From an uncultured Planctomycetia bacterium (GTDB lineage: Bacteria > Omnitrophota > Gorgyraeia > CAYWPX01), in contig CAYWPX010000004.1 of the NCBI GenBank assembly GCA_964460615.1, positions 19,116-83,115 of the forward strand: DNA of 64,000 nt. The letters are read 5' to 3'. The stretch's first letter is position 1, and each line of letters starts with the position of its first letter. The notes under the pieces are model-generated. The model saw only the letters and a program-made list of their open reading frames with translations, was not told where the DNA came from and did no database searches. The translations under genes were made by a program, and so were the position numbers. This document shows, piece after piece, positions 18,785-36,794 of the stretch.

Positions 18785-19019
18785 TTTCTAGAAGCTCCGT
18801 ACTTTTCCTTAAGAATTCTACGATCTTAAACGAATGCGACCCCTGCCAGTAGATCCGGCAACATTCCGGACATTTATAATAATCACTATGAGTGCTGTAG
18901 ATATATTGGGGTACCTGATCTTTGATAGAACCCTTATCGATCTTTACGAGCTTTTTGTTACAAAGAACACATAAGCTTAAAAACTTGTAGTTCGTCGTTC
19001 GTACTTCGTATATCGTTAA
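18777..19019 (-). pseudogene. Fragment homologous to the C-terminal zinc-ribbon half of a Mut7-C (PIN-like RNase, DUF82) protein; no start codon or N-terminal domain
   Basis: An open frame with no ATG/GTG/TTG encodes ...LCVLCNKKLVKIDKGSIKDQVPQYIYSTHSDYYKCPECCRIYWQGSHSFKIVEFLRKSTELLENG. The CxxCN...CPxC..YWxGSH pattern is the Mut7-C signature. Its 5' part is occupied by the GTAC-rich palindromic element. It overlaps the start of the PHP gene out of frame. Confidence 0.35.
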
Positions 19020-19057
19020 TTATTCTCGATGTACTATGTACGATATACGATGTACTG

Positions 19058-21863: not shown

Positions 21864-22083
21864 TATTTTCTCACATCTTTCAGCGATTATGCTATTGGCC
21901 TATTATGCGATTAGGTAAACCCGATCGCCTAATTGCTTAATCACTGCTTTTGTCTTTCACCTAATTACATAATCGCTTAGTCGCCCAATCACTTTCTTAT
22001 CTTTCACCCAATTGCCAAATCGCCTGATTGCCTAATCGCTATTTTTTTGACATTCCCGATCCTCAATCAAAAGAGCGGGACAT

Positions 22084-22110
22084 AAAAAAAACCGCTTAGC
22101 GCTTAACGCA
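22084..22110 (-). terminator. Candidate attenuator terminator downstream of the PyrR box
   Basis: On the minus strand a GC-rich segment GCGUUAAGCGCUAAGCGG is followed by U8 (plus-strand A8 at 22084-22091). I could not draw a clean long stem by eye. Confidence 0.35.
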
Positions 22111-22160
22111 CCAAGTGGTTTATCAGACCCCAAATCAATTTCTTATTCATTTACTTTTTT

Positions 22161-22195
22161 CCCTTGCCGGTCTCTCGGACTGGCTTAAAAGGTAC
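22161..22195 (-). promoter_or_regulatory. PyrR-binding RNA motif (anti-antiterminator loop) in the pyr operon leader
   Basis: The minus-strand RNA reads UUUUAAGCCAGUCCGAGAGACCGGCAAGGGAA. It matches the conserved PyrR box (UUUAA..UCC.GAGAGGCU.GCAAGG) and lies about 300 nt upstream of pyrR. Confidence 0.55.
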
Positions 22196-22330
22196 TAATA
22201 TTTTATTTTGCATCAGTATACGCTAAATATGAGTTATTGTCAAGATAAAAATCAAAAAAGAAAAAGGGGACAGGCTACTTTTTTTATTTTAGTTATCTCA
22301 AAAAGTAGAAAAGTAGCCTGTCCCCTTTTT

Positions 22331-22720
22331 TTACTCCTTAAGAAGTTCCTTGATTTTGAACATAAGTGTTTGCGGCTCATAAGGTTTGGTAATATAATCG
22401 TCTGCTCCTACCTCTTTAGCAAGGATTTTATCAGATTCATTGGTCCTGGCAGAAAAAATCAGTATTGGTATATTAAAATATTTTTCATCAAATTTAATCA
22501 TCCTGCAAACGCTATAACCATCTATCTTAGGAAGCATAAGATCCAGTATTATCAGATCAGGCGATTGTTTTTTTGCCATTTCAAGGCCCTCATGGCCGTC
22601 ATGAGCGACAATAACTTCATATCCGGCCGTCCTTAACCTGACCTTAAGGACCTCCACCAGGTCTTTTTCATCGTCTACAATAAGGATTTTTTTTACCATA
22701 GCTCTTTCTCCGCTCTTCAA
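22331..22720 (-). CDS. Single-domain CheY-like response regulator (receiver only)
   Basis: ILIVDDEKDLVEVLKVRLRTAGYEVIVAHDGHEGLEMAKKQSPDLIILDLMLPKIDGY with phospho-acceptor Asp, then the conserved T and K. It is a paralog of 32840..33226. Confidence 0.85.
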   Translation of the reverse strand: MKSGERAMVKKILIVDDEKDLVEVLKVRLRTAGYEVIVAHDGHEGLEMAKKQSPDLIILDLMLPKIDGYSVCRMIKFDEKYFNIPILIFSARTNESDKILAKEVGADDYITKPYEPQTLMFKIKELLKE

Positions 22721-22723
22721 ACC

Positions 22724-23971
22724 TTAGGGTTTTACAAAAAGCGCCGCGCCGTCAATCCCATCCATTTCAACTACACGAAGCTCAACCTTTCCTTCCAGGT
22801 CCACAATATTTCTTTTATTCTCATCATAATCATAATCAAAACGCTCGTCATTGCCAAGGCTCATAAAATTTATCCCGAGCTCGGTGTCCCTATTGATGTT
22901 TTCTGAAAGCACAACACTACCCGGAGGATATTCGATCTTGAAACTGGTGAACTTATCCTGCCCTGATTTATCTTTTGCCAAGCTGATCGTCGCTTCATAT
23001 ATATTCCCTGATTCGGGCTTAAACTCCAGAACAATTGTACCTCTATCCTTAAGGCCCATTACATTATAAAGGGTAAGGGCTTTAACTTTCCTTGAGTTTG
23101 GCACAAAAAAATGAGTTTCGGGCCTAAGTATTATGCCTGTTCCTATATTTGAAGAATTTCTTATGCTGCAGTAATTGAGCAGGTCTTTTTTTAAAACCTC
23201 TTTTTTGTCTTTAGCATATATCATCCCGGATATATCCACCATAATCGCAGTCACCATGGGTAAAAGTTCCGGGGCTATCTGGCCGTTTTCATTAAAATTT
23301 ATCTTCGTATTGGTATTATCATAATATTCGAAGTTGCATTTAGTCAACTCAAAATTATCAGATACTCTTTCGGGGATATCATCTATTCTTTCTTTATAAT
23401 TCTTAATAAGCTTCTTAGAGTCCGGATCAAATTTGAAGGTCATAACAGCTTTTTCGAAGGTTGATTCGGGCTGATAAATGATTTTTATATTGCTCCCAAC
23501 CGGGAGAAAATCCTGCAATATAACCTTATCGTCGGGCTTGTACTCCGTTTTATGATCGCCATAAATAAATGTTATGGGAGTCGGCAGGTAATCCTTAGCT
23601 CCTTCTTTTTTGGCTTCGACTATAGGTATCGGAGACCCGGGTTCCAATGGAAGCTCAAGGGTATATGTCCTGTCGCTTGTTATATCATAAGGCCCTTCAA
23701 CCCATGGCGGCACAAAGGCTACCGAATGCTCCCCAGCACTCAATAATTTAAGCGAATCTTTGACGCCATAAGACTCAAATTTCCCTTCACAAAGACTTTC
23801 CATCACTTCGGACATTTTTTGCTGCAGGATCACATCATTCTGCCCAAAAAAATATGCATTCATGGTAGAATACAGCATAAAGACCGTAACACCCGCTAAG
23901 ATCGACGCTATGGCAATGGAGACCAATAGTTCGATAAGCGTCATGCCGGATTGTTTTATTTTTTTAATCAT
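22724..23971 (-). CDS. Large minor pilin / pseudopilin (prepilin N-terminal methylation domain, 415 aa)
   Basis: MIKKIKQSG|MTLIELLVSIAIASILAGVTVFML is a class III signal peptide. The remainder is a large beta-rich body. Confidence 0.7.
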   Translation of the reverse strand: MIKKIKQSGMTLIELLVSIAIASILAGVTVFMLYSTMNAYFFGQNDVILQQKMSEVMESLCEGKFESYGVKDSLKLLSAGEHSVAFVPPWVEGPYDITSDRTYTLELPLEPGSPIPIVEAKKEGAKDYLPTPITFIYGDHKTEYKPDDKVILQDFLPVGSNIKIIYQPESTFEKAVMTFKFDPDSKKLIKNYKERIDDIPERVSDNFELTKCNFEYYDNTNTKINFNENGQIAPELLPMVTAIMVDISGMIYAKDKKEVLKKDLLNYCSIRNSSNIGTGIILRPETHFFVPNSRKVKALTLYNVMGLKDRGTIVLEFKPESGNIYEATISLAKDKSGQDKFTSFKIEYPPGSVVLSENINRDTELGINFMSLGNDERFDYDYDENKRNIVDLEGKVELRVVEMDGIDGAALFVKP

Positions 23972-24057
23972 AATTAATTCTTAAATTTTTAGTACGGCGT
24001 ATAGAGTACCGCGTTTTTTAACCCTATACTCCGTACGCAGAACTCTGTACAAAAAAT

Positions 24058-24462
24058 CTACTCCGTACTCGTCCATTCCAGATCTTCAAATAGCGTCACA
24101 AATTCCAAAACCGGTTTTTTTAGCATATCTGATTTAAATACTTTTATGTGTATCTCCAAAGGATCTGTTCCCGGAATAGGCTCCCTCAGGGTCCGCCATT
24201 CCATATTATTAAGTTTAAGCGGGGGTTCCGTGAGAGGAGGGCTGTAAAGATTACCGATCTCAAGTATCTGTTCTTTCGTAAAAGTCAGATTCTTCAAAGA
24301 CTCCATATTTATGCGCCCGACCATGAGCGCTGTCATTATCTCATCTGTGGCATATACCTGTTCAATTGACGCTGTAAACATTCTCATTATAGGTATTAGG
24401 CATACTCCTATTATCGTGATTGCTATCAGTAGTTCAATATAAGAAAACCCCGTAAGAGACAT
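24058..24462 (-). CDS. Minor pilin / pseudopilin (GspI/PilV-like)
   Basis: The internal start MSLTG|FSYIELLIAITIIGVCLIP gives a canonical short prepilin leader. The ORF-track start at 24513 adds an implausible 17-aa extension. Confidence 0.65.
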   Translation of the reverse strand: MSLTGFSYIELLIAITIIGVCLIPIMRMFTASIEQVYATDEIMTALMVGRINMESLKNLTFTKEQILEIGNLYSPPLTEPPLKLNNMEWRTLREPIPGTDPLEIHIKVFKSDMLKKPVLEFVTLFEDLEWTSTE

Positions 24463-24692
24463 AAAAACGCCTCTTCTTCTTAACTCTATTATTGAGCTTT
24501 GTTTAGTATGCATAATTTTTTGCTTATTCCTTACAATAATCTCTTACGCGGAAAATGCTTTTCTATTTTTCATAAATTTTAACATTTAGATGCCAGATGA
24601 CAGAAATCAGAAAACAGAAATTAGATTTTTTTCTTTTCTGTCTTCTATTCTCTGTTTTCTGTCTTCTGTTTTCTATTCTCTGTCTTCTTATT

Positions 24693-25043
24693 TTACAACG
24701 TACTATAACTAATTTGCACAGTTCTAACCGCCCTATTTACCTCGCCAAAAGCCGTGATAGTAGAGGTTTTATAATCATGTATCGCCCAGTATTCGCCGGC
24801 ATTAAGTTTTTTCTTCGAAACATTTCCTATACCATCACCGTCGGGATCAAGGCCTGTCCTTATCTCATAAAGAGATTTAGCCAATCCCCCCTCTGCCAGA
24901 TACAAGGCCTCCTGCCTATCCACTTCGCTTTGTACTAATGTAATCCTAGAAAAAAGCAGGGCTATCAAAGATAGCCCTACAAGCGTAAAAAACGAAAGCA
25001 TTATTATGGTTATTATAAGTATGTAACCTTTTTTGTTATTCAT
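24693..25043 (-). CDS. PilX_N-like minor pilin
   Basis: MNNKKGYILIITIIMLSFFTLVGLSLIALLFSRITLVQSEVDRQEALYLAEGGL resembles PilX N-terminal domains. The ORF-track N-terminal extension (MAHEK...) is encoded by the heptamer repeats and is rejected. Confidence 0.55.
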   Translation of the reverse strand: MNNKKGYILIITIIMLSFFTLVGLSLIALLFSRITLVQSEVDRQEALYLAEGGLAKSLYEIRTGLDPDGDGIGNVSKKKLNAGEYWAIHDYKTSTITAFGEVNRAVRTVQISYSTL

Positions 25044-25130
25044 GAAATTTATTGCTCCCGGCTCCAGGCTACAAGCTCCAAGCTCAATAAGTTTTTCATG
25101 AGCCAAGAGCCATGAGCCAAGAGCTAGTGT

Positions 25131-25592
25131 TTACCATTCCCTCGGAACCTGGCCGGAATAATCCCCCCATTTTGAATCCAGAGGATTCTTTATGTTAATA
25201 TAAACTTCCGCTGTGTCCGGGTGATACAGCCATCCCCCTTCGCTATATGCCGGTTCTTCGTTTGATACCGAATCAATATAAGTATTATTACCGGATTTTG
25301 AGCTTACAAGCTCAGGAGGCATTTTGGATAAATACGGCTTTTTCACTCCCAGATCAAGATACTGAGTTGTCAGTAGATCACCCAGGGTGGCAGGATATCT
25401 ACCTTCTTTGGCCCTAAAAAGAGTTATGCGATTCCTCAGAGAATCAAGATTTGTTTTTGAAGATGTTATTCGCGCCTCGACGTCAAACCCGATAAAATTC
25501 GGAATAAGCGTCGCAGCTAAAATTCCGAGTATAGCTATGACTATGAGTAGCTCTATGAGGGTGAATGCTAATTTGTAAGAATTGTTGTGCAT
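25131..25592 (-). CDS. Major pilin / GspG-PulG-like pseudopilin
   Basis: MHNNSYKLA|FTLIELLIVIAILGILAATLIPNF followed by a GspG-like body (..TNLDSLRNRITLFRAKEGRYPATLGDL..), 153 aa. Confidence 0.7.
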   Translation of the reverse strand: MHNNSYKLAFTLIELLIVIAILGILAATLIPNFIGFDVEARITSSKTNLDSLRNRITLFRAKEGRYPATLGDLLTTQYLDLGVKKPYLSKMPPELVSSKSGNNTYIDSVSNEEPAYSEGGWLYHPDTAEVYINIKNPLDSKWGDYSGQVPREW

Positions 25593-25708
25593 GTTAAACT
25601 CTCCTATTTTCGTCGTTCGACTTTCGTACTTCGTACATCGTTTTTAAAGTTACTTTTATTATTTTATCTTTGTCGATGTACTATGTACGAAGTACGATGT
25701 ACTGCTTT

Positions 25709-26926
25709 TTAATGTCTAAAAACTTTTATCAAATTAAAGATCGGCATAAGTACCGATAGCGCGATGAAACCTACCATCAGCCCCATGGATAAAAGAAGCG
25801 CCGGTTCCATAATCGTAACCATATTCTTAATGGAGCTCTCTACTTCTCTATCATAAAAAGAAGCTATCTCAAAAAACATCTGGTCGAGCTTTCCGCTCTT
25901 TTCTCCTACGTTTATCATCTGGACGACCATTGCCGGGAAGAGCCCGCTTGCCTTAAATGCCTCAGTCAGGCTTCCGCCTTCGGAGATAAAAACCCTAATG
26001 TCCTGTATTATCCTGCGCATAAACGTATTTGTTATCGTCTTTTCAAGTACCAAGAGCGATTCCAGCATTGGAACACCGGATTTTGTCATGGACCCAAGCG
26101 TCCTTACAAATCCCGCTATGAGTGTTTTGAGATAAAGATCGCCAAAAACCGGTATTCTAAAAAGTTTTTTATCGAGATTAAATCTTCCTTTAGGGCTCGC
26201 CTTATATGCTTTAAACCAAATATAAAGCCCAAAAATCATCGCTGCAAACACATACCAGAAGTTCCTTATCAAAAAACTCATTTTTAGAAGCACTAAAGTT
26301 GGTATCGGAAGCTTGGCTCCGGCAGTTTCAAATAGAGACGCAAATTTAGGAAGAACCACCGCTACCATGAAAGTTATAACGCTTAAACCGACTACCACGA
26401 GAATCAATGGATATATGGCGGCTGATTTTATCTTCCCTTTTGTTTCAAGTTCATGAAGGCCGGTAGTCGCAAGCCTATCCAATACCTCGTCAAGGTTACC
26501 GGCCGTCTCAGCCACTTTGACCATCGAAGCGTAGGTTTCGGGGAAAACCTTTGGATAGAGCCTAAGAGTTTCGGAAAAACTTTTACCTTTTTCAATATCT
26601 TCTAAAATTGCCTTAATGATAACTTTAAAATTTTTATCTTTAGCCTGGTCGAGAAGACCTTCAAGAGCAGTTGTGATGGCAACACCCGAATGAAGCATGG
26701 TGGATAACTGTTTAATAAAAAGTATTACTTCCTGCTCCGAGATCTTTTTTGGTTTAAAACCAAATTTTTCAAATGCTTTCTTTATCTCGGTCTTTTCTTT
26801 GACATATACTACCGTATAACCGAGCTGCTTAAGGCCCTTGGCGACCGTAAACTCATCTTTACCGTCGATAGACCCATCCAGTAAATTCCCCTGACGGTCA
26901 CGCGCTTTATATGTGTATTGTGTCAT
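25709..26926 (-). CDS. pilC: Type IV pilus / T2SS platform protein PilC/GspF
   Basis: 405 aa with two GspF-type cytoplasmic domains and three TM segments. It ends in the typical MPIFNLIKVF. Confidence 0.85.
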   Translation of the reverse strand: MTQYTYKARDRQGNLLDGSIDGKDEFTVAKGLKQLGYTVVYVKEKTEIKKAFEKFGFKPKKISEQEVILFIKQLSTMLHSGVAITTALEGLLDQAKDKNFKVIIKAILEDIEKGKSFSETLRLYPKVFPETYASMVKVAETAGNLDEVLDRLATTGLHELETKGKIKSAAIYPLILVVVGLSVITFMVAVVLPKFASLFETAGAKLPIPTLVLLKMSFLIRNFWYVFAAMIFGLYIWFKAYKASPKGRFNLDKKLFRIPVFGDLYLKTLIAGFVRTLGSMTKSGVPMLESLLVLEKTITNTFMRRIIQDIRVFISEGGSLTEAFKASGLFPAMVVQMINVGEKSGKLDQMFFEIASFYDREVESSIKNMVTIMEPALLLSMGLMVGFIALSVLMPIFNLIKVFRH

Positions 26927-26932
26927 ATAGGT

Positions 26933-28918
26933 TTAATTTAATTTTTTATTAATTTTCTTATCAATTCTTTTAAGCATTTTTTTTGCGCTCGAGGCAAATT
27001 TAGATTTGGGATAATCTGCCAATAATTTTTCAAATATTTGTTTTGAATTTTGATAATCCTTAAAATTTTTGTAAGTAATTTCTCCTGCCCTATATAACGA
27101 CTCATCCGCTTTAGGGCTATCTGGGAACTGGGTGGCAACCAAAATATAAGTATCAACCGCATCCATCAATCTTGTCCTGTCATCCTTGTATTGGCTTTCA
27201 GCCCCCCTATTAAAGCGCAGGTCCTCTGCTCTCTCAAAATAGATCATTGCGGTATTTCTCTTGCCGGTAGGAACTATATCCACTACGACCTCAGGAGGTT
27301 GCTTTGTATCCGGTGATTTTATCGCATCCTGAGATTTTATTATATGAGGAGTAATAAAGACCGCTAACTCCTGCTGGGAGTCTTTTGTAGACCTGTCAGA
27401 AAATAAATAACCGACAACAGGTATATACCCAAGTACCGGTATCCTGTTTACAGTCTTATTATCTTCACTCTTAATAAGCCCGCCTATTACTATTGTCTCT
27501 CCGTCTACTACTCTTACGGTTACATCGGCTTCACGGGTATTTACTGTCGGGCCTGTTGTAGCATCATTGCTTACTAAACTCGATACCTCGGGATGTATAT
27601 TCATTGTAACAAACCCATCCGAACTAATCCTTGGTAATACCTTAAGCGTCGTACCAACGTCAATAAATTTTGTATTCTCTACCGTACCTGTTGTAGTTGT
27701 GGTCTTCTCCTTATAAGGTACCCTCTGGCCTATTACAATTCTTGCTTCTTTGCCATTCAAAGTTGTTATGGAAGGAGAGGCCAATAAATGCGCTTTCCCG
27801 TCCCGTATAAGCGCGTCGACAGTGGCACTAGCCGTAAAATTTTTGAGAGTAAATGTTGTCAGCTTAAACTGCCCGCCTGTAAGATCGCTGGAAGGCCCTG
27901 CCAATGTAGTAGTACCTGCTACTGTTTCAGGAAACCGCGTAGCTCTGTCAAATAAACCGCGGCCGGGGCTATAATTTGCGCTATAGGTAACGCCGATATT
28001 TGAAAAAGCATCTGCCTGAAGATCCACTATCTTTGCCTCTATTACAACCTGCATAGGAGGGACATCTATCTCCTTTAAGAGCATATTTATTCTTTCGAAT
28101 GTCGCCGGATAATCCGTAACAATAAGGCTGGAGTTTGCTTCATTGGTGCTCATGGAGCCTTTATCGCTCAGTATTTTTGAAAGAAGCTTATAAGCATCGT
28201 CTACCGGAACGAATTTTATACCGATAGATTTAGTTATCATACCCTGCGATTCGGCGCTTGGGCCGGGTGAGATATAAATAATGCTTCCTTTGCGTGTATA
28301 GGCATAACCATTTGTAGATAATATAGCTTCCAAAGCCTCGTCTACAGTAACATCTCTCAAAGAGATGGTGACCTTTCCTTTAATATCTTTTAAGGCGACA
28401 AGATTAAGGCTGTAGGAATATGAGAGCGCCCTAAGAACACTTGAAAGATCGGCATCTTTATAATCAAGGGATATCTTATCATTAGGTCCCAATTTTCCTT
28501 CAATAGGCTTTTCTCCGGAAGCGTCCTCTAACCCGGACAGATCAATAATTGAGCTGGTTTTATCTGAAAAAGTTTTCCCCTCCGAAGGAGTCTCTTTGGC
28601 GCTCTCGCTCGTCGCGGGCACTTCATGGACAGATTCTGTAGGGCTCTCTTCAGTAATAAGAGGCGCGACATCAGCTTCGCCGGATATTTGTTCCGGGGCC
28701 TCCTCAATAGGCTCTGAAACCTTTTTTTCCTCAATGGGTTTTTTCTCCAGATATAAAACCGGTTTAGTATTGTTGACATCCTGGCACAACCCTGTTGCAA
28801 TAAAAATAGACCCCAGAAAAAATATCGACAGAGCCGACCGCAGAAAATACTTGCTCAATAAGATTTTATTCATATTCACCTCGTAAATTAATAAGCTAGT
28901 TAAATGGAACTTCCCCAT
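26933..28918 (-). CDS. pilQ: Secretin PilQ/GspD family with a C-terminal TPR-like extension
   Basis: The secretin C-domain contains GGLIKSEDNKTVNRIPVLGYIPVVGYLFSDRSTKDSQQELAVFITPHIIK, preceded by N0/N1-like domains. It has a signal peptide and is 661 aa. Confidence 0.85.
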   Translation of the reverse strand: MGKFHLTSLLIYEVNMNKILLSKYFLRSALSIFFLGSIFIATGLCQDVNNTKPVLYLEKKPIEEKKVSEPIEEAPEQISGEADVAPLITEESPTESVHEVPATSESAKETPSEGKTFSDKTSSIIDLSGLEDASGEKPIEGKLGPNDKISLDYKDADLSSVLRALSYSYSLNLVALKDIKGKVTISLRDVTVDEALEAILSTNGYAYTRKGSIIYISPGPSAESQGMITKSIGIKFVPVDDAYKLLSKILSDKGSMSTNEANSSLIVTDYPATFERINMLLKEIDVPPMQVVIEAKIVDLQADAFSNIGVTYSANYSPGRGLFDRATRFPETVAGTTTLAGPSSDLTGGQFKLTTFTLKNFTASATVDALIRDGKAHLLASPSITTLNGKEARIVIGQRVPYKEKTTTTTGTVENTKFIDVGTTLKVLPRISSDGFVTMNIHPEVSSLVSNDATTGPTVNTREADVTVRVVDGETIVIGGLIKSEDNKTVNRIPVLGYIPVVGYLFSDRSTKDSQQELAVFITPHIIKSQDAIKSPDTKQPPEVVVDIVPTGKRNTAMIYFERAEDLRFNRGAESQYKDDRTRLMDAVDTYILVATQFPDSPKADESLYRAGEITYKNFKDYQNSKQIFEKLLADYPKSKFASSAKKMLKRIDKKINKKLN

Positions 28919-28981
28919 GTTTAAGCCCGGAATCTCTTCTATTAATAAAATCTCAGAGATGTTAAAATTTCTGAGATTTGA

Positions 28982-29872
28982 TTAATCCTGTTCAATGCTT
29001 ATTACTATCTCTTCTCCTGTTTTATCCTTAAGGATAACGCTTACTTTAGAAATATCCTTAATATACATTTCATCTATTTTGTCGCCTATCTTGTAAACTT
29101 CTCCGTTTATTATAGCGGTCCTTATCCCTCCAAACCAATTTACACCCTGAAGCTTGTATTTTTTCCCGACACTTTCCGAAACCATCTTTTTTTCGGGTTC
29201 CATTTTTGATTTAAAAGGACTTTTTGAAATACTCAAACGCTCCAGGTATGGCACCTTTATCTCCTCGACGAGCTCTGCCGGGCGCTCACTAAGAAAAGTC
29301 CCCAGTATGACCCTGCATTTAATGGCCCCCTGCATCCCGGTCTTTGGAGCCTCGAGCTCCAAAGAAGAGGGTTTAAGGAATTTTGAGATGTTTTCAAGGC
29401 GGTAAAGATAATTTACAAAATTTTCATACGAAGCATTCATTTTCATCTCTATCTCAAGCTTTGAATAAGTGGTCTTATTTTTTGTTGCGGTCGGCCGTAT
29501 GGATACAAAATCAACATTATAAGCATTTCCCTGCTTGATAAGTTCATTCAAAATAGTGGGGATCCTTTCGCGGTTAGTCAATTTATCTTCAACGTCATAC
29601 AACCGCTTCCTGGTCTTATCGTAACTTATCTTAAGCTCGTTTAATTCTATTTTCTCTTTTTCCAGCTGAGGGGCCTCGGATTTAACGCTTGAGAGTTTTG
29701 TTTCGATGGACTTGATTTCGATTTTAAGCTTTTTAAGCTTGATATTCATCGGTTTATAAATAGCATTAAAATAAAAACTGAAAATAAATGCGAATACAAG
29801 CCCCAGGACAAGATACTGCTCCCGCTTTTTAAGCGCATTGAATTTATCTAATAGTTGGCGGTAATTTATCAT
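28982..29872 (-). CDS. PilO-like protein with a C-terminal PilP-like beta-domain (apparent PilO-PilP fusion)
   Basis: The N-terminal TM plus coiled-coil is PilO-like. The C-terminal ~70 aa, KLQGVNWFGGIRTAIINGEVYKIGDKIDEMYIKDISKVSVILKDKTGEEIVISI, matches the PilP/GspC homology-region pattern. Confidence 0.55.
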   Translation of the reverse strand: MINYRQLLDKFNALKKREQYLVLGLVFAFIFSFYFNAIYKPMNIKLKKLKIEIKSIETKLSSVKSEAPQLEKEKIELNELKISYDKTRKRLYDVEDKLTNRERIPTILNELIKQGNAYNVDFVSIRPTATKNKTTYSKLEIEMKMNASYENFVNYLYRLENISKFLKPSSLELEAPKTGMQGAIKCRVILGTFLSERPAELVEEIKVPYLERLSISKSPFKSKMEPEKKMVSESVGKKYKLQGVNWFGGIRTAIINGEVYKIGDKIDEMYIKDISKVSVILKDKTGEEIVISIEQD

Positions 29873-29905
29873 TTCTTTTTTCTTTTTGTACTAATGTTTT
29901 TCTTT

Positions 29906-29960
29906 AGCTATGAGCTATGAGCTATGAGCTATGAGCTATGAGCTATGAGCTATGAGCTAT
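29906..29960. repeat. Microsatellite (AGCTATG)x7.8 in the pilN-pilO intergenic region, overlapping the pilN stop codon
   Basis: Seven perfect tandem copies of AGCTATG plus one partial copy. The same heptamer family occurs at 1961-1990, 12411-12433, 14131-14162, 17491-17526 (inverted) and 25050-25125. Confidence 0.9.
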
Positions 29961-30541
29961 ATTGCCGGATGCGTAATGATCTCAAACTCTATAAACTTTT
30001 CTTTCTTCTCGGATTCCGGCCGTTCCGTATAAGAAAAATTTGTATCATTAAATATCTTTGACTTATCAAGCTCTATCATAAAATTACTTATCGATTCAAA
30101 TTTAGTTGTTTCCCCCTTAATTTTCATAGTCTCAGGATTAAGTATAATATTCTTGACCCAGAGATCCTCCGGGACAAGCTTCACTATCCCTACAAGATAT
30201 TTGCTTAAGGCAAAAGACCCTTCTTCCAGATCCTTGAGGGCTTTTAGTTTATCGTCAAGCCGTGCCTTATCAGCGATCAATTTTTCTTTATCTTTTTTGA
30301 TCATTTCCAGAGTACCTTTTGAGGATTCAAAATCATTTTTAGTTTTGTTGAAATTATTTGTCACTGATACAAGTTTTTTTGAGTAGACTTTAAGCATCGA
30401 AGCCTGATAGATAGTAACAACCACTCCTATTATGATAAATAGCGATACAGCATCCAGAAAAAGCGACTTTTTAAGAAATGGGAGCTTTATATAACTGGAT
30501 GATTTTCTTTCGCTATATAGGAGATTTATTCTTTTCTTCAT
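29957..30541 (-). CDS. pilN: PilN-like pilus assembly protein
   Basis: MKKRINLLYSERK (an INLLP-like motif), a single TM, then a coiled-coil. 194 aa. Confidence 0.65.
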   Translation of the reverse strand: MKKRINLLYSERKSSSYIKLPFLKKSLFLDAVSLFIIIGVVVTIYQASMLKVYSKKLVSVTNNFNKTKNDFESSKGTLEMIKKDKEKLIADKARLDDKLKALKDLEEGSFALSKYLVGIVKLVPEDLWVKNIILNPETMKIKGETTKFESISNFMIELDKSKIFNDTNFSYTERPESEKKEKFIEFEIITHPAI

Positions 30542-30650
30542 CCCGTAAGACTCCTTATATGGTCATAATAGTAAAATAAACTTTTATTGTATTTTTTCAT
30601 ATTTTTAGGACCAGCAAACAACTGATTCATGTTAATAGTCTTACGGAATT

Positions 30651-31880
30651 TCATTCTTCCTCTTGTATCTTTCTGTACGCAAGACCTATGGAGACAGCAA
30701 AATTAGCTGCTAGCTGCTCAATATTAAATTTCTTTTGCAATTCATTATTGATATTAAGACCCTTGACCGGATTTGCCATCTCTACAGGCACGTCGAGCCT
30801 TGATTTAATATATTCGGGAAGCCCTTTAAGATGCGAAGTTCCTCCCGCAAGAATAAGCTTACTTAGATTTGTCACACGTGATTTCATAAGCTGATATGAA
30901 AAATATTTAAACGAATGTTCCACATCATTTGCCAGATTTTCCAAAAGCGGGATGATCGCATTTCTCACAGTGAGCCCTTCCGGCGAACTTCCCTCGATAC
31001 CAAAATTAATTTTAAGACTTTCGGCAGTGTTGGGGTCCACGTTACAATAGCTGGCTATGGATTTTGATATTGAATCACCTGTAACACTCAGGTTTCTGGA
31101 AAAATAAATTTTTTTGTTCAGGCTGATGCTGAAGTTAACAAGGTCAGAACCTATATCAAGAATTCCTATGGGCTCATTATCAACCTGCCCTGAAAGTATC
31201 AACGCCTCATTAAGCGCAAAGGGATCCACCTCAACAGCCAGAACGTTGAAGCCGGATTTCCTGAATACCGATATGTGGTTAGAGATCACTTTTTTGGTAG
31301 CTATCACCAGAAGCACCTCAAGCTCATCCCTATTGCTTTCATGCGCGTCGCTTAGTAACAGCGTATCCAAAGAAAATTCGTCTATCTTTTCGCCGTAAGC
31401 CTGTTTTAATTCCCACAAAACAGCGTCATTTATCTCTTTTAGCGGCATGGTAGGGAGTTTCAGGATCTTGATCTCAACCGCTCCTGCCGGAAGATTGACG
31501 TATATATCTTTTGGCTTTTTGTCCTTAAAAGCGCTTTTGAATAACTTGAGAAGGAATTCATTCCTTTCAGTCTCTGAGGTTTCACGGCTGACACTGGGGA
31601 CCTCGAACATTCCTAGATCAAAAAGCTGGATATTCCCTGATTTATCTTTTGCGAACTGCGCAAATTTAATGAAATTGGATCCTATATCAACCCCGAAAGG
31701 ATAGAATTTTGCTATGTCTTTCTCTCTTAGGCTCTTTGCATTTTCCTCGGCTTTTATGCCGGGGATAACACCCTTGTGCTTCTCAAAAAAAGATGCTATC
31801 TTATCGCGCTTCTCGGTAGTAGCGGCGACTTTTTTGAATATCGACTCTACAATATTTTCTTTAGGATTAGTTTCTGCCAT
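30651..31880 (-). CDS. pilM: PilM-like actin-fold pilus assembly ATPase
   Basis: 409 aa. The GVDIGSNFIKFAQF phosphate-1 motif and the overall sugar-kinase/actin fold pattern are typical of PilM. Confidence 0.75.
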   Translation of the reverse strand: MAETNPKENIVESIFKKVAATTEKRDKIASFFEKHKGVIPGIKAEENAKSLREKDIAKFYPFGVDIGSNFIKFAQFAKDKSGNIQLFDLGMFEVPSVSRETSETERNEFLLKLFKSAFKDKKPKDIYVNLPAGAVEIKILKLPTMPLKEINDAVLWELKQAYGEKIDEFSLDTLLLSDAHESNRDELEVLLVIATKKVISNHISVFRKSGFNVLAVEVDPFALNEALILSGQVDNEPIGILDIGSDLVNFSISLNKKIYFSRNLSVTGDSISKSIASYCNVDPNTAESLKINFGIEGSSPEGLTVRNAIIPLLENLANDVEHSFKYFSYQLMKSRVTNLSKLILAGGTSHLKGLPEYIKSRLDVPVEMANPVKGLNINNELQKKFNIEQLAANFAVSIGLAYRKIQEEE

Positions 31881-31889
31881 AAATTATAT

Positions 31890-32843
31890 TTATACTAATG
31901 CCTCTTGGTTAAGTTGCGTAGACAATTCAACCTGTTTTACTGACTGCGGCTCTAAAATACCTAAAACCTCTTCCGCTAACGCCAAATAGTCGGCCGCCCC
32001 TTTGGAGCGGGGTTCAAAAAAATTAACAGGTTTTCTATATATCGGCGACTCGCAAATTTTTGAATTAGTATGTATAACAGAATTTAACATAAGATTTTTA
32101 AAATATGCCTTCAACTGTTCTAAGATAAGTTTATTGATGCTGAGCCTCGGGTCATAGATCGTAGGAAGAATGCCGAGTATCCTTAATTCAGAATTTAGTT
32201 TTTCTTTTATTATATTTATGGTTGATAAAAATTCCTTTAGGCCTTCGAGTGAATAATAATGCGTCTGAATAGGTATAAGGATATTTCTTGAAGCCGCAAG
32301 CGCATTCACCGTCAAAAGACTGAGTGACGGGGAGCAATCAATTATTATATAATCATAAAGATTTGTTATATTGGATTCGCAAAGGGCGCGTCTGAGCATT
32401 GACTCCTTGGAATCAAACTGCGCAAGTTCCGTAAGCGCGCATGCCAACACCGGAGTAGTAGGCGCGATATTCAGCCCCGGTATCAAAGTCGGCACGATAA
32501 CATCATCAATTTTCAGACTGCTATCTGTAAGAACATTGTAGATAGATTTTGTAACGTTATTTATATCTATGCCCAATCCAAGACTGGCGTGAGCCTGAGG
32601 GTCTAGGTCAATAATTAGAACATTTTTCCCTTTTGCTACCAAAGCGCCGGCAAGATTTATGGTAGTGGTGGTCTTCCCGCAGCCGCCTTTTTGGTTTGCC
32701 ACAGCAATAATATTGCTCGTTTTGACATTTACGGGCCTGATGTATTCAACCTTTGAAAACTTTTTCTTTGGAAATATGGAGATGGGAGTATTTAAAAATT
32801 TTATTGATTCATTCGCCAATTTTACCAAGCTAAATTTTTTCAT
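31890..32843 (-). CDS. ParA/MinD-family P-loop ATPase with a ~45-aa N-terminal extension
   Basis: Deviant Walker A VANQKGGCGKTTTTINLAG, Walker A' IIDLDPQ, Walker B IIIDCSP. It overlaps the response-regulator stop by 4 nt and ends 10 nt before pilM. Confidence 0.8.
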   Translation of the reverse strand: MKKFSLVKLANESIKFLNTPISIFPKKKFSKVEYIRPVNVKTSNIIAVANQKGGCGKTTTTINLAGALVAKGKNVLIIDLDPQAHASLGLGIDINNVTKSIYNVLTDSSLKIDDVIVPTLIPGLNIAPTTPVLACALTELAQFDSKESMLRRALCESNITNLYDYIIIDCSPSLSLLTVNALAASRNILIPIQTHYYSLEGLKEFLSTINIIKEKLNSELRILGILPTIYDPRLSINKLILEQLKAYFKNLMLNSVIHTNSKICESPIYRKPVNFFEPRSKGAADYLALAEEVLGILEPQSVKQVELSTQLNQEALV

Positions 32844-33226
32844 TTTTGGCCACCTATGTATTTTGAAATTAATTCCATCAGGTCTTTTGTGTTAAACGGT
32901 TTTGTCACATATTCATTCACACGAACCTGCTCACCGATCTTTCTGTCACTTTCCTGTGTTTTTGCGGTAAGCATTATTATGGGGATCTCTTTATACTTTG
33001 TATCAAATTTCAAAAGCCTTGCTACCTCATATCCATCGATTTTAGGCAAAAGCACGTCGAGAATAATCAGGTCGGGTTTAAGCGATCTTGCCTTGTCAAG
33101 CCCTTCCTGCCCATTCGTCGCAGTCAGCACTCCATATCCCGATGCTTCAAGCCTCACCTTAAGGGCATCCAATATCGGAACTTCATCATCTACAACTAAA
33201 ATTGTTTTTTTATCGTTATCAGCCAT
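32840..33226 (-). CDS. Single-domain CheY-like response regulator
   Basis: ILVVDDEVPILDALKVRLEASGYGVLTATNGQEGLDKARSLKPDLIILDVLLPKIDGY. Its start overlaps the histidine kinase stop by 1 nt. Confidence 0.85.
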   Translation of the reverse strand: MADNDKKTILVVDDEVPILDALKVRLEASGYGVLTATNGQEGLDKARSLKPDLIILDVLLPKIDGYEVARLLKFDTKYKEIPIIMLTAKTQESDRKIGEQVRVNEYVTKPFNTKDLMELISKYIGGQK

Positions 33227-34581
33227 TATAATACCAGTCCTTTATTCAGATTATTCAATAATTCCACGGGAGTTTTTCCATCCTCCGGAAAACTTGTGAG
33301 GAAGTATTCAAATTCTATTTTTACATTTATATTGTGAGCCTTAAACTCCTCTTTATCAAGCAATTTTTTTATTTTTTGTGCCAGATGATCAGCTTCTCTT
33401 TTTGATCCGGCCATGGCTGATATTAAAATATATCTGCCTCTAAAGCAACCTGTCTTTATAGCAGATTCTCTTATATAATTTGCCGCGGCTTTAACAGCGC
33501 TTTCCATAAGATCGCAGAGCTCTTTACCGGTAAGCGACGGAAGCCTTGATAAGGAACCTTTTGTTATATCAAATACTATCAGGGAAAACGACTTATCATT
33601 TTTGATAAGATCTCTTAGATGCTCTAAAAGAATATCGTCTTCAGAAAATCTGGGGATAGTAAAAGTAAAAGTCGAGCCCTTACCTATAACAGACTCAGCG
33701 GAAATTTTCCCCCCGTGCATCTCAACTATCTCTTTTGAAATAGCCAACCCCAGCCCCATACCGCCTATTAAAGACGGTTCTTTTCTTTTTTCCAGCAGAT
33801 ACATCTTACTAAATATCTTTTCAAGATCGTCCTTGTCAATGCCTCTGCCTGTATCAGTAACGGAAATTTCTACTCTGTTATCAAAATCCCTGAGACAAAC
33901 TGTTATGTTGCTGTAAAAAGGCGTGAACTTAACGGCATTCCCGGTAAGATTGACTATAACCTCCGATATCTTATCGGGATCTATCGATATAGGCGCAACA
34001 TTATCCGGCATTTCGATGGAAAATTTTATGCCTTTTGAGGCATTATTAATTTTAATGACCTCTATCTCGTTTTCAATAAGCTTTTTTATGTCAGCCTCTT
34101 TTCTTTTTAAAGAAATTTTCCTGTTTTCAAGGATCTCGACATTAAGAAGATTGTCGACCAGGCGCGCTAACCTATCTATGGATAGCATAATAGCCTTAGT
34201 ATATCTTTTTTGATTATCCGTCAAAGGCCCCGCTATCTCATCCTGTATAATAGAGGCAAATTCCCTTATACTCACCAAAGGAGTCCTGAATTCATGGGAA
34301 ACCTTGGAAATAATATTTGATTTAAATGCATCCAAGCTTTCGAGTTCGACTTTGATCATCTCACAACTTCTATGCTCCATTATTTCCCTGTACCACAAAA
34401 AAATCACAGAAATAAAAATTGTCCCCAGTATAAATTCCGTAGAGATAAATTCTTTGTTTGGAAAAAATAAAATATTGCAGATCCTTATTAATAAAAGAAG
34501 AATTATAAGAGAAAGAACGAGGATCTTGTATTTTTTGGTTAAAAGTGTTTTGAGTATGTAGCTTCTTTCGGTTTTTATCAT
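33226..34581 (-). CDS. Membrane sensor histidine kinase with a C-terminal degenerate GGDEF-like domain
   Basis: Two N-terminal TM helices. H-box SHEFRTPLVSIREF. HATPase_c with G-boxes DTGRGI and GGMGLGLAI. The ~140-aa tail aligns with GGDEF domains, but the active site reads RGRYI instead of GGDEF. Confidence 0.7.
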   Translation of the reverse strand: MIKTERSYILKTLLTKKYKILVLSLIILLLLIRICNILFFPNKEFISTEFILGTIFISVIFLWYREIMEHRSCEMIKVELESLDAFKSNIISKVSHEFRTPLVSIREFASIIQDEIAGPLTDNQKRYTKAIMLSIDRLARLVDNLLNVEILENRKISLKRKEADIKKLIENEIEVIKINNASKGIKFSIEMPDNVAPISIDPDKISEVIVNLTGNAVKFTPFYSNITVCLRDFDNRVEISVTDTGRGIDKDDLEKIFSKMYLLEKRKEPSLIGGMGLGLAISKEIVEMHGGKISAESVIGKGSTFTFTIPRFSEDDILLEHLRDLIKNDKSFSLIVFDITKGSLSRLPSLTGKELCDLMESAVKAAANYIRESAIKTGCFRGRYILISAMAGSKREADHLAQKIKKLLDKEEFKAHNINVKIEFEYFLTSFPEDGKTPVELLNNLNKGLVL

Positions 34582-34740
34582 TTGATAAATAGGGTTATGG
34601 GTTAAGGGTCATGGGCCAAGGGCTTAACCCTTTCCCCTCACCCCAAAACAGTTTTTAGATGGCCCAGCTGCGCAATAAGTTGCAAAAATCCCTCCTTATA
34701 GATTAAAAACAATCTCTAAGTTCGATATTTTTGCAACGCT

Positions 34741-34771
34741 TGGCTGGGCATTTAATTGCATAAATAAAATT
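34741..34771. promoter_or_regulatory. Perfect 14-bp inverted repeat (ttaattgcataaat-aaa-atttatgcaattaa) immediately downstream of pilB and upstream of the HK-RR-ParA-pilMNOQ genes
   Basis: Read directly from the sequence. A second 10-bp IR, ttgcaaaaat...atttttgcaa, lies at 34680-34738, together with G-rich GGGTTA-like repeats at 34595-34640. Confidence 0.4.
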
Positions 34772-34778
34772 TATGCAA

Positions 34779-36569
34779 TTAAATAGACTCCGCAACTCGC
34801 ATTATTTCACTGATCGTCGTAATACCTTCGAGGACTTTTTCATAGCCGTCCTCTTTAAGGGTCCTCATACCGTTTTTCTTTGCAACCTCTTCTATCTGAT
34901 AAGCGGCCGCCTGTTTTAAGACAAGCTCTTTAATATCTTCATCCACGGTAAGAAGTTCATAAATACCGATCCTGCCTTTGTAGCCTTTATTCTTACACTC
35001 CGGGCAGCCGGTCTCTTTGTATAGCATGGTATTTTTGTTTAATTTTCTTCCAAGGTTTTTTTCCAGAAACTCTATTTCTTCATCCTTGGGTTTATACTCT
35101 TTTCTGCATTTAAAGCAGAGTTTCCTTATAAGCCTCTGCGCCACAACTCCTGTGAGGCTTGAAGAGATCAAAAACGGCTCTATACCCATATTCAATAATC
35201 TGGTCACAGCACTTGAAGCATTATTGGTATGAAGTGTTGAAAAAACAAGGTGCCCCGTAAGAGCGGCATGTATGGAGATCTCTGCTGTTTCTACGTCTCT
35301 TATCTCGCCTATCATTATTATGTCCGGGTCCTGCCTAAGGATACTCCTGAGTCCATTGGCAAATGTAAGCCCGGCCTTTGGATTTATCTGAGACTGCCTG
35401 ATCCTTGAAATAACATATTCAACGGGATCTTCGAGGGTAATAATATTTTTATTAACTTCATTGATATCATTTAAAACGCCGTAAAGAGTTGTTGTCTTGC
35501 CGGAGCCGGTAGGCCCAGTGACAAGCATAATCCCAAAAGGCTTCCTGATCATCTCTTTTAATTTTTTAAGGGCTGCCTGCGAAAAACCCAGATCCTCAAG
35601 CCTGTAAAACCCAGATGTTTTATCGAGGATCCTGATGGAAATATTCTCTCCATATATCGTCGGAAAACTTGATATCCTGAGGTCTATCTTTTTATCTCCG
35701 ACAACCATATTAATACGGCCGTCCTGCGGAAGGCGGCGCTCTGTTATGTCCATCTCCGCCATGATCTTAATCCTTGATATAATTGCGGCTTCAAGTTTTT
35801 TTGGGACAGGCTCAAAAACAGAATCATATAAAACTCCGTCGACTCGGTAACGAATATAAAAATTGTGCTCATCCGGCTCTAGGTGTATATCGGATGCCTT
35901 TGATTCTACGGCGTCATTTATAAGTTTGTTGACTGTATTTATGATCGAAGGTTGTATTGCTTCTTTGATCGCCTCTTCGTCTCTGGGGCTTGGTGGAGCC
36001 GCTTTTTTTCTATCGGCCTGGCCTTGAACAAAATGTTTCTCCAGAGAAACTTTTTCTTCCGGCATGGCGGCTCCGCCGCCGACACCGCGCTCAAGTCCCA
36101 TAAAATCTCTTTTTGAGTCGGTGGAAACTTTTGCTTTGTAATATTTTTCTATGGAATTTTTTATTGAAGTCGGAGTTGCAAATATCGGCCGGATAGTCAT
36201 GCCGGTTGCGCGCCTTACCTCATCTATTGCGTCAACATCCAAAGGATTGACCATGGCAACAGTAAGAGCATCGCCAATAATATAAACGGGCATAATACTA
36301 TGTTTTGAAACTAATTCAAATGGTATTTTCGATAAGCAGTCTTTATCGATCTCGTATGAGGAAAGGTCTATGTAAGGGTAACCGATCTGTTCAGAGAGGG
36401 CTATTCCGATGTCTTCCTCGCCGACAAAACCGAGTTTCATAAGTATGGAAGCGAGTTTTTTGCCGGTTCTCTTTTGCTCTTCTAAAGCAATATTGAGCTG
36501 GTCACGGCTTATTATGCCTTTTTTTACCAGTATCTCACCAATCAGTGGTCTGCCGAATTCCTGGTCCAA
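34779..36569 (-). CDS. pilB: Type IV pilus assembly / T2SS ATPase PilB/GspE
   Basis: N-terminal T2SSE_N domain. Walker A GPTGSGKTTTLY, Asp box, His box. Tetracysteine motif CFKCRKEY...CPECKNKGYKGRIGIYELL. 596 aa. Confidence 0.9.
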   Translation of the reverse strand: MDQEFGRPLIGEILVKKGIISRDQLNIALEEQKRTGKKLASILMKLGFVGEEDIGIALSEQIGYPYIDLSSYEIDKDCLSKIPFELVSKHSIMPVYIIGDALTVAMVNPLDVDAIDEVRRATGMTIRPIFATPTSIKNSIEKYYKAKVSTDSKRDFMGLERGVGGGAAMPEEKVSLEKHFVQGQADRKKAAPPSPRDEEAIKEAIQPSIINTVNKLINDAVESKASDIHLEPDEHNFYIRYRVDGVLYDSVFEPVPKKLEAAIISRIKIMAEMDITERRLPQDGRINMVVGDKKIDLRISSFPTIYGENISIRILDKTSGFYRLEDLGFSQAALKKLKEMIRKPFGIMLVTGPTGSGKTTTLYGVLNDINEVNKNIITLEDPVEYVISRIRQSQINPKAGLTFANGLRSILRQDPDIIMIGEIRDVETAEISIHAALTGHLVFSTLHTNNASSAVTRLLNMGIEPFLISSSLTGVVAQRLIRKLCFKCRKEYKPKDEEIEFLEKNLGRKLNKNTMLYKETGCPECKNKGYKGRIGIYELLTVDEDIKELVLKQAAAYQIEEVAKKNGMRTLKEDGYEKVLEGITTISEIMRVAESI

Positions 36570-36731
36570 GATATATCCTTATCTAATTGTAATTATAATA
36601 TAAATATAATTAATTAAATTATTTAATTAAGTGGATATAGTAATCCAATATAAAAAACTTTGTTTAAATTCCACTAACTATTGTTAGGATATCATAATAA
36701 ATAATTATTTTCAAGCTATTAATTCATATTT

Positions 36732-36775
36732 AAAAAAAATTGCCCTGACAATTATGGCAGGGCAATGATTTTTCA
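36732..36775 (-). terminator. Rho-independent terminator after the giant gene
   Basis: An 8-bp stem ttgccctg/cagggcaa with a 10-nt loop. On the minus strand it is followed by T8 (plus-strand A8 at 36732-36739). It lies 20-60 nt downstream of the stop at 36795. Confidence 0.7.
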
Positions 36776-36794
36776 AGCATCTTAATATTTATTA

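Follow-up and report, generated by a model that had tools for sequence, protein, structure and literature searches.

Between pilN and pilO, inside a pilus and secretion operon of an uncultured bacterium that probably belongs to the Omnitrophota, lies a perfect tandem repeat of the heptanucleotide AGCTATG. The question raised by this locus, a 64-kb stretch of contig CAYWPX010000004.1 (hereafter the window), is what kind of element such an array is and whether it could act on the genes at its sides. The tract almost certainly belongs, judging by its sequence features, to the known class of intergenic bacterial heptanucleotide repeats. We file it among the long simple sequence repeats (LSSRs) because each defining feature open to testing was found: 7-nt units arranged head to tail, an excess of period 7, a non-coding location and turnover between relatives. 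What is new here is the AGCTATG/CATAGCT unit and the probable Omnitrophota lineage, neither of which is among the described cases. The element is an ordinary member of a class that lacks an established function, and the observation itself is real and statistically solid. Slightly notable beyond that are the density and diversity of the arrays, their hairpin architecture and a puzzle concerning their polarity.

Tandem Repeats Finder delimits the main array at 29906-29960, with period 7, 7.9 copies and 100% matches, that is, seven full AGCTATG units plus six of the seven bases of an eighth on the plus strand. The genes lie on the minus strand and the operon mRNA carries the array as (CAUAGCU)n. 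Read in this sense, the first unit supplies the TAG stop codon of pilN (29957-29959): the pilN open reading frame (ORF; 29957-30541, minus strand, Pfam PilN) ends in CCG GCA ATA TAG. A tandem array between the two genes that overlaps the pilN stop had been described in an earlier, sequence-only reading of this DNA, and the minus strand reads exactly so. After the last unit, an A-rich leader of 33 nt (29873-29905, minus strand) runs to the ATG of pilO (28982-29872, Pfam PilO). In the spacer listing this leader has no ribosome-binding site of the GGAG type, which many of the neighbouring genes have, and the promoter scan gave no promoter-like site in the pilN-pilO spacer. In the CAUAGCU orientation the array puts no AUG in front of pilO. 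Within a family of AGCTCAT type (in mRNA sense) it is the longest member and the purest, and it stands as a solo arm, with no inverted partner array.

The AGCTATG unit closes all three frames on both strands, through TAG on one and TGA on the other. With stop codons in all six frames, arrays of this unit persist only in non-coding DNA, and their location outside genes is thereby forced in part. The main array is not an assembly artefact, because an independent ENA contig (L002), which differs by 2 single nucleotide polymorphisms (SNPs) and is essentially the same strain, spans it with an equal copy number, and because two Logan unitigs with 100% identity to the window run into it from either side. 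Both unitigs break inside the array.

Is this array isolated in its genome? Our period scan of the window found 10 arrays of period 7 against 0.0 in shuffled sequences. The other periods from 4 to 15 gave 0 or 1 array each, except period 14 (twice 7) with 5. All 10 of the period-7 arrays lie outside the domain-supported genes, which span about 86% of the window; one of them (25054-25085) falls within an unsupported ORF (24693-25106). This ORF (minus strand, 137 aa, TTG start, no family match) has an array hairpin at its 5' end, holds also a strong terminator-like site at 24980-24956 and may not be a real gene. Specifically we read, in gene orientation, the 22 spacers longer than 20 nt within 1-36.8 kb. 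About 12 of them hold short-period arrays, mostly of 7 nt, and these spacers flank pilus and secretion genes as well as pyrC, pyrD, pyrE, pyrF, a carB-like gene and a tRNA gene. Therefore the association is not restricted to surface genes.

The units are diverse. GCTCATA occurs at six sites, the main array included, and GTACATC at two; further units are AGAAGAC, TTGACAG, ACGAGAG, GGGTTAA/CCCTTAA and GCGATTA-like, and all of them are mutually unrelated. Most arrays measure 28-30 nt, about four units. Tracts of this size are located at 1915-1943, 1958-1985, 12371-12399, 14131-14160, 17493-17521, 19027-19055, 24022-24050, 25097-25125 and 25674-25702. These arrays of about four units cannot form G-quadruplexes.

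The sequence-only reading had also listed five further ranges with short arrays related to AGCTATG, and all five hold imperfect arrays of the same family, which brings six AGCTCAT-type loci into the 64 kb. Those reported at 1961-1990, 12411-12433 and 14131-14162 share the orientation of the main array; each consists of 3-4 units in an imperfect AGCTATS/AGCCATG array. The first (1958-1985, minus strand) reads GCTCATG GCTCATA GCTGATA GCTTATA in mRNA sense, ends in GCTCATAGCTGATAG and has as neighbour an array of a different unit, GTTGACA/GATGACA (1915-1943, minus strand). The second is part of a series of three consecutive arrays that lies between pyrE and tRNA-Val (12329-12431, minus strand), with units ATAGCTC/ATAGCTG at 12412-12431, ACGAAGG/ACGAGAG at 12371-12399 and AGCTGAA/GGCTGCA at 12329-12364. 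The third (14131-14160, minus strand) lies between pyrD and pyrF and ends again in GCTCATAGCTGATAG. The range 17491-17526 has indeed the inverted orientation: its array (17493-17521, minus strand) gives UAUGAGC CAUGAGC in the mRNA, about 30 nt upstream of the carB-like gene. In the last range, 25050-25125, the repeats are present, although they are really two inverted arrays (25054-25085 and 25097-25125) that form one hairpin. The remark that all these arrays lie between co-directional genes is true but uninformative, since the minus strand carries every gene in the window, that is, every sizeable domain-supported ORF. The 15-mer GCTCATAGCTGATAG is common to the ends of three solo arrays. This shared 15-mer, together with the short modules that recur in the spacers, looks like dispersal of short elements going beyond local growth.

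There is prior evidence of similar repeats in many bacteria. Heptanucleotide repeats are described as intergenic and variable between close relatives, with inverted pairs noted and no function settled (PMC4679880, PMC4692102). As reported in these two papers, Mrazek 2007 found heptanucleotides to be the most abundant long simple repeats in many bacterial genomes; the first adds that their phylogenetic distribution is scattered and that they were proposed to originate from slippage of the polymerase at a 7-nt contact. As far as such second-hand accounts go, the window resembles the LSSRs (units of 5-11 nt; Mrazek, Guo and Shah 2007) in its tandem 7-nt units, intergenic location, recurrence of a unit (here at six loci within the 64 kb), preference for period 7 over its neighbours, environmental and non-pathogenic hosts, variable length and sequence and the lack of an established function. 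It differs from them in its high density, about 12 spacers in 35 kb, and in the coexistence of several unrelated units. The GGGAATC/GGGGAYT heptamers of Xanthomonas and Nostoc (Rehm et al. 2015, PMC4692102) have a preferred size of four units, form inverted pairs, are under-represented between divergent genes, accompany all functional gene classes, vary between close relatives and show no demonstrable regulatory role, and because of these properties their authors argue against phase variation. Shared with our arrays are the intergenic location, the preference for about four units, the occurrence of some inverted pairs that can fold into stem-loops, the rarity between divergent genes, the association with all classes of genes and the variation among close relatives. 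GGGAATC-type units are G-rich and form G-quadruplexes, whereas AGCTATG and most units of the window cannot. In the same way, the TAACTGA repeats of Beggiatoaceae, cyanobacteria and Bacteroidetes (MacGregor 2015, PMC4679880) occur in spacers that include those of essential genes, have a unit that contains a stop and show a patchy distribution across phyla, and a post-transcriptional role has been proposed for them. Cold-shock, S1 and CsrA proteins are proposed there as binders. However, in Beggiatoaceae one dominant unit is found mostly just upstream of starts, while the units of the window are diverse and their arrays begin mostly just past stops. The window contains no TAACTGA repeat with up to 1 mismatch. 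The short tandemly repeated repetitive (STRR) sequences of cyanobacteria have the units CCCCART, TTGGTCA and CAACAGT; none of our units matches these exactly, the closest being CTGTCAA (1915-1943), with 6 of 7 positions identical to CAACAGT after rotation. A literature search with the repeat sequence itself gave nothing bacterial.

What could such arrays do once transcribed? Behind several of them comes a second array, of the complementary unit, so that the transcript can fold into a long hairpin in which both arms are periodic by 7 nt. In RNA folding, five inverted pairs score far better than their shuffles, with z values from -2.9 to -7.2. The first (18987-19055, minus strand; -18.5 kcal/mol, z -3.40) consists of two inverted arrays, GTACATC... 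and ...GATATAC, and begins 2 nt past the pyrC stop. The second (23992-24050, minus strand; -22 kcal/mol, z -2.93) has the arms GTACAGA/GTACGGA and GCGGTAC/GCCGTAC and lies between two pilin-like genes. The third (24588-24688, minus strand; -35.7 kcal/mol, z -7.16) joins (AGAAGAC/AGAGAAT/AGAAAAC)x8 with (ATTTCTG/TTTTCTG)x5 upstream of a minor-pilin-like gene (24058-24513), and Tandem Repeats Finder reports periods of 7, 14 and 21 in it. The fourth (25054-25125, minus strand; -37.1 kcal/mol, z -4.57) has inverted arrays with AGCT/GGCT cores (GCTCTTG GCTCATG ... TTGGAGC), 6 nt past a pilin stop. The fifth (25609-25702, minus strand; -24 kcal/mol, z -3.89), 6 nt past the stop of pilC, is a second GTACATC/GATGTAC hairpin. 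It and the first one, 6.6 kb apart, are homologous copies of one element in both arms. The differences between the arms of these two copies keep the pairing (GTACTTC/GAAGTAC versus GTATATC/GATATAC), and their loop lengths differ. The hairpins begin 2-8 nt past the stop codon of the upstream gene; counting arrays and hairpins together, five begin 0-8 nt past a stop.

The main array does not fold in this way. Its RNA forms a ladder of 4-bp AGCU:AGCU helices with 3x3 loops between them (-16.5 kcal/mol, z -1.45), which is no better than shuffles, and it is not palindromic beyond the AGCT core. The other solo arrays of AGCTCAT type have z values between -0.9 and +0.8. Besides, a block of (GGGnnnn)x3 followed by (CCCnnnn)x4 (34592-34644, minus strand; -28.9 kcal/mol, z -1.35) ends 10 nt before the histidine-kinase start. 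We considered a reading of the arrays as intrinsic terminators and rejected it, as no array or hairpin is among the terminator-like sites of 17000-36900. The array hairpins have no GC-rich stem followed by a U-tract; canonical terminators are found elsewhere, at 24980-24956 and, by eye, after the giant ORF that precedes the operon.

Taken together, these data are best accommodated, and rather probably explained, by a composite mechanism of slippage with dispersal, survival in non-coding DNA, transcription, intercistronic hairpins and a solo arm that serves as spacer. The arrays would grow and shrink by strand slippage, and short versions of them would spread between spacers as small dispersed modules. 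We infer slippage and spread because the units differ at one and the same junction among relatives and because three arrays share a 15-mer. Stops in all six frames of the unit let arrays survive in non-coding DNA only. They are presumably transcribed inside operon mRNAs, because the spacers lie between co-directional genes and have no promoter or terminator signal. In the predicted folds the inverted arrays form long stem-loops within a few bases of the upstream stop. Elements of the repetitive extragenic palindromic (REP) type protect upstream mRNA segments, and the stem-loops of the window probably work between cistrons as hairpins of the REP or RNase III type, on which the relative stability or the processing of operon segments would depend. 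At the pilN-pilO junction the solo arm supplies the pilN stop, doubles the spacer (84 nt, against 40 nt in the relative L004) and brings in no AUG before pilO. Any effect on pilO would be quantitative, the spacing or a weak structure uncoupling pilO translation from that of pilN, and would not be an on/off switch.

Several points weigh against this account. Transcription, processing and any effect on pilO are steps that we infer. Slippage alone accounts neither for one unit at six places within 30 kb, nor for the identical 15-mer at the end of three arrays, nor for the fixed polarity of inverted pairs in other genomes (see below). As the fold of the main array is no better than those of shuffles (z -1.45), the hairpin mechanism is not directly applicable to it. 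Finally, the window represents 64 kb of this genome, and the gene calls at the loci of other genomes follow a crude longest-ORF rule.

The homology of the two GTACATC hairpins in both arms, 6.6 kb apart, could also indicate small mobile or recombining palindromic elements, akin to REPs and their paired form (REPINs), to bacterial interspersed mosaic elements (BIMEs) or to MITEs (transposable elements of the miniature inverted-repeat kind), with the transposase encoded elsewhere and the pure array a secondary expansion of one arm. The 15-mer GCTCATAGCTGATAG shared by three AGCTCAT arrays would fit, as would the short modules (GATTAGGYGAA...AAAGAAAAA) that recur next to arrays in a BIME-like mosaic, the Logan unitigs that break exactly at arrays, as multi-copy sequence would, and the extragenic location just past stop codons. 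Actually, the likeness to REP, BIME and REPIN elements extends to their common position just 3' of a cistron within operons, to stem-loop formation and to a multi-copy, mosaic nature; of each dispersed family, 2-3 copies are visible within the 64 kb. But the six AGCTCAT arrays have neither conserved flanks nor target-site duplications, the loops or spacers of inverted pairs in other genomes are mutually unrelated, and neither a transposase, including a REP-associated tyrosine transposase (RAYT), nor a conserved REP sequence was seen in the window. No REP element is known to consist of tandem 7-nt units, and REP arms are not tandem arrays of this kind. The palindrome typical of REPs is absent from the main array (z -1.45) and present as folds in five other elements of the window (z -2.9 to -7.2). 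Overall we find a mobile origin quite improbable.

Could the main array switch the pilus on and off? The sequence-only reading had offered two interpretations, and the evidence partly supports it, on the side of the second. A genome-wide intergenic element fits: the arrays adjoin pyrimidine-biosynthesis, tRNA, regulator and pilus genes, and they are present in relatives and in many phyla. A switch that makes pilus stoichiometry phase-variable does not fit. Whatever the copy number, pilN stays the same because its stop precedes the array, and with the array's position 33 nt before pilO and no promoter-like site, gain or loss of units cannot shift a frame or a promoter spacing. On/off phase variation at pilN-pilO is excluded by this geometry. 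Two features of contingency repeats are accordingly missing, as a change of unit number in the main array alters neither frame nor promoter spacing and the family is not confined to surface or virulence genes, being found also beside pyrD, pyrF, pyrE, carB and tRNA genes. The idea of pilus phase variation is unsupported and would need read-level data before being taken any further.

A graded, structure-dependent effect on pilO is conceivable by analogy with Haemophilus hmw1A, where a transcribed (ATCTTTC)n repeat forms one arm of a long hairpin that is cut by RNase III and sets the adhesin level (PMC12721329). On this model the array would be a tunable contingency repeat, with slippage at pilN-pilO adjusting pilO translation or mRNA processing by degrees and giving heritable, reversible pilus variation. 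With 7.9 perfect copies the array is at the long end (only 12 of the 128 arrays in other genomes, among the matches listed, are that long), its perfection suggests a recent expansion, it sits within a pilus/secretion operon, and several other arrays of the window precede pilin genes. As in the 5' untranslated region of hmw1A, a heptamer repeat stands here beside a surface-structure gene, and the precedent demonstrates that a transcribed heptamer repeat can control an adhesin through a hairpin and RNase III (PMC12721329). However, the hmw1A repeat sits between promoter and gene, whereas the pilN-pilO array sits between two cistrons and has no partner arm, and the model fits paired arrays before pilin genes, such as 24588-24688, better than it fits this one: the hairpin-arm character is absent from the main array, with its fold at z -1.45, and present in others such as 24588-24688. 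Demonstrated features of the hmw1A repeat are variation in copy number, cleavage by RNase III and an inverse relationship with expression. Unit changes alter neither reading frame nor promoter here, the family is also found beside pyrimidine-biosynthesis genes, the count is equal in two assemblies of the same strain, and an orthologous AGCTATG pair in Bacteroidales has kept its unit number across 6% divergence. On like grounds, phase variation was argued against in work on further heptamer families (PMC4692102). We consider a tunable repeat at this junction unlikely.

To see the locus in relatives, we searched with PilN and found only two, 63-65% identical (contigs L004 and L005); scanning metagenomes with a PilM alignment for more of them gave no match. 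The spacers of our locus measure 109 nt for pilM-pilN and 84 nt for pilN-pilO, against -4 and 40 nt in L004, a syntenic contig of 17.8 kb. In the 40-nt spacer of L004 only two decayed units are found, ATAGCGA ATGGCTG, and three other heptamer arrays, AT-rich, occupy its pilin spacers. In L005, pilN is followed by AATGACC units. Heptamer arrays thus persist in the locus across relatives, with differences at the spacers they have in common, while the unit and the copy number turn over. Evidence on variability over shorter times is thin and negative: the equal copy number at the main array in two assemblies of essentially one strain (2 SNPs), and one orthologous pair of Bacteroidales loci (L033 7230-7500 and L097 4205-4475), in which an AGCTATG/CATAGCT pair kept its unit number at 94% identity over 2.6 kb. 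In the latter the substitutions accumulated in the 5' arm and the 3' arm is almost unchanged. Besides, an Omnitrophota contig (L031, 4667-4817) has a 151-nt CTATGAG/CTATAAG array of about 21 units directly upstream of a carB-like gene; the carB-like gene of the window has an AGCTCAT-family array upstream too.

How far does the unit extend beyond this lineage? We scanned one genome per bacterial or archaeal species for (AGCTATG)x3. Over 119 stretches, belonging to at least 12 phyla, have three or more tandem units, where the calculated expectation by chance is about 0.3. Among the matches listed are Gemmatimonadales, Saprospiraceae and other Bacteroidota, Deinococcales, Chloroflexia, Acidobacteriota, Planctomycetota, lineages of the candidate phyla radiation, gammaproteobacteria and four Omnitrophota contigs from three assemblies. 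In 843 kb of these listed loci we counted 319 arrays of period 7, against 3-27 for periods 5, 6, 8 and 9. In every other sequence set examined period 7 was about 3-13 times as frequent as any of these four, and only period 7 had a heavy tail of long arrays. The intergenic position of AGCTATG arrays in other genomes is forced by the stops in all frames, and we have not used it as evidence.

Of the period-7 arrays in the listed loci, 37% lie no more than 150 nt from an inverted partner; the calculated chance expectation is less than 1%. The AGCTATG pairs are nearly always arranged as 5'-(AGCTATG)n, an unrelated spacer and (CATAGCT)n-3': the ratio to the opposite arrangement is 35:0 with loose matching, 18:1 with strict matching and 11:1 in an independent viral set. 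Both arrangements give an identical duplex, so the bias requires a directional process. The window's own pair with AGCT/GGCT cores (25054-25125) is arranged the other way round, with a variant unit. The neighbouring genes of the AGCTATG pairs in the listed loci are co-directional in 15 cases, convergent in 11 and divergent in 2, and the pairs often occupy the entire spacer. Orientation is also biased relative to genes, since arrays that abut an incoming stop read AGCUAUG in 27 cases and CAUAGCU in 15, and those that lie upstream of a start by 25 nt or less have CAUAGCU in 18 and AGCUAUG in 7. The inbound arm contains in every unit an overlapping stop/start, AUGA, and the outbound arm has no start codon. 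The orientation bias is consistent with avoidance of upstream AUGs, together with the overlapping AUGA on the inbound arm. However, avoidance of AUG does not explain the polarity between convergent genes.

This polarity bears on two further explanations. In one, the arrays would be binding sites of a protein with a footprint of about 7 nt, either an RNA binder of the cold-shock-domain or S1 kind or a DNA-structuring protein, and its tandem loading would melt structure, block ribosomes or organise the DNA. A directional reader of this sort could account for the fixed polarity of pairs, for a period that is strictly 7 whatever the unit sequence and for one unit that recurs at six sites. The clustering of arrays at about 28-30 nt, four units, would fit as well, as in the GGGAATC repeats of Xanthomonas (PMC4692102), and binders of the cold-shock, S1 and CsrA families are those proposed for TAACTGA repeats (PMC4679880). 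Yet a sequence-specific binder leaves unexplained at least seven unrelated units in 35 kb, the units turn over completely between relatives, the solo arrays of other genomes follow no orientation rule relative to transcription (35 versus 25 among the matches listed), and no candidate protein was identified. We would give this possibility a low chance.

In the other, arrays and hairpins alike would be a pure mutational by-product with no cellular role, as 7-nt slippage and template switching that perfects palindromes fill unconstrained spacers. Arrays and pairs often occupy the whole spacer from gene end to gene end, and turnover between relatives is rapid. Slippage of the polymerase is an origin that published work has proposed (PMC4679880, PMC4692102). 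Arbitrary heptamers also form arrays in viral contigs far above chance: AGCTATG gave 4 matches there and composition-matched control heptamers 1, 4 and 17, while AGCTNNNx5 and AGTCNNNx5 gave at least 120 matches each. What speaks against a by-product is the fixed polarity (35:0, 18:1, 11:1), the rarity of pairs between divergent genes (2 of 28), the orientation bias relative to start codons and the modal length of about 4 units, all of which indicate selection or a directional process. A pure by-product is therefore very unlikely in our view. The viral counts gave no evidence that AGCTATG is a special motif, as it falls within the range of the composition-matched controls. In IMG/VR, (TAACTGA)x3 was found in 107 viral contigs, where arbitrary heptamers of matched composition were found in 1-17.

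That the opposite arrangement is nearly absent implies a machine or process that has a direction. As possibilities we would name a translation-coupled hairpin opened by incoming ribosomes, a polar protein binder and a repeat synthesis directed outwards. It is even possible, although we rate the chance as modest and the idea as rather doubtful, that arrays of AGCTATG type are the solo arms of an undescribed structured intergenic element, shared across phyla and made of inverted heptamer pairs with fixed polarity.

The pile-up of 7-nt repeats in bacterial spacers has been a minor puzzle since 2007, and STRR, TAACTGA and GGGAATC repeats are all known without a proven function. To this the window adds a very dense example from a poorly known lineage, in which many unrelated units of one period, a preference for about 4 units with no G-quadruplex potential and frequent hairpin pairing just after stops are combined. 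If hairpins do shape the stability or processing of operon mRNA, as in the composite mechanism that we favour, the ratios of subunits would be set by them, both in the pilus/secretion machinery and in pyrimidine synthesis. In annotation, such tracts account for contig breaks and can provide stop codons.

The operon is part of a long run of genes. An ORF of 8608 aa (36795-62621, minus strand) is located directly upstream of genes for an MshE-like ATPase, a histidine kinase, a response regulator and a ParA-like ATPase, and the run continues with pilM, pilN and pilO, a secretin, pilC and pilin genes. A giant ORF beside a locus similar to type II secretion or type IV pilus systems has been described for Omnitrophota in a 2023 preprint. 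We base the probable placement of the genome in this phylum on that likeness and on the Omnitrophota contigs that bear AGCTATG arrays.

In the pyrimidine operon, a 412-aa gene of the TIGR00375 family (PHP type; 17546-18784, minus strand) lies between pyrC and a half-size carB-like ORF of 525 aa. As it is flanked by arrays we considered it as the gene of a mobile element and rejected this, since it codes for a PHP-type protein and for no transposase. In the 273-nt spacer that precedes it (18785-19057) there is the remnant of a Cys-rich ORF, CxxC...CPECC..YWQGSH. Upstream of pyrR (21870-22250, minus strand) a promoter-like site (22243-22215) is followed by a match to the PyrR binding site and its terminator. 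The Rfam match (22084-22196) is sub-threshold, with 48.2 bits against a gathering score of 54. Between that terminator and the pyrR start codon are about 200 nt of GCGATTA/GGCAATC arrays with a period of 7 or 8 nt. The Rfam search of the window matched nothing on the arrays and returned only two tRNAs, this sub-threshold site and a chance plastid match.

Finally, other repeats share the spacers with the heptamers. A short module, GATTAGGYGAA...ATAAAGAAAAA in gene orientation, recurs beside arrays at 1869-1903, 14161-14195 and 22030-22057, and these spacers are thereby mosaic in a BIME-like manner. A 58-nt tandem duplication (11661-11776) is found just downstream of tRNA-Asp, and a 26-nt repeat (CGAATCTAAACCGTCGGC...) occurs at 11461-11486 and 12068-12093, one copy downstream of each tRNA gene.

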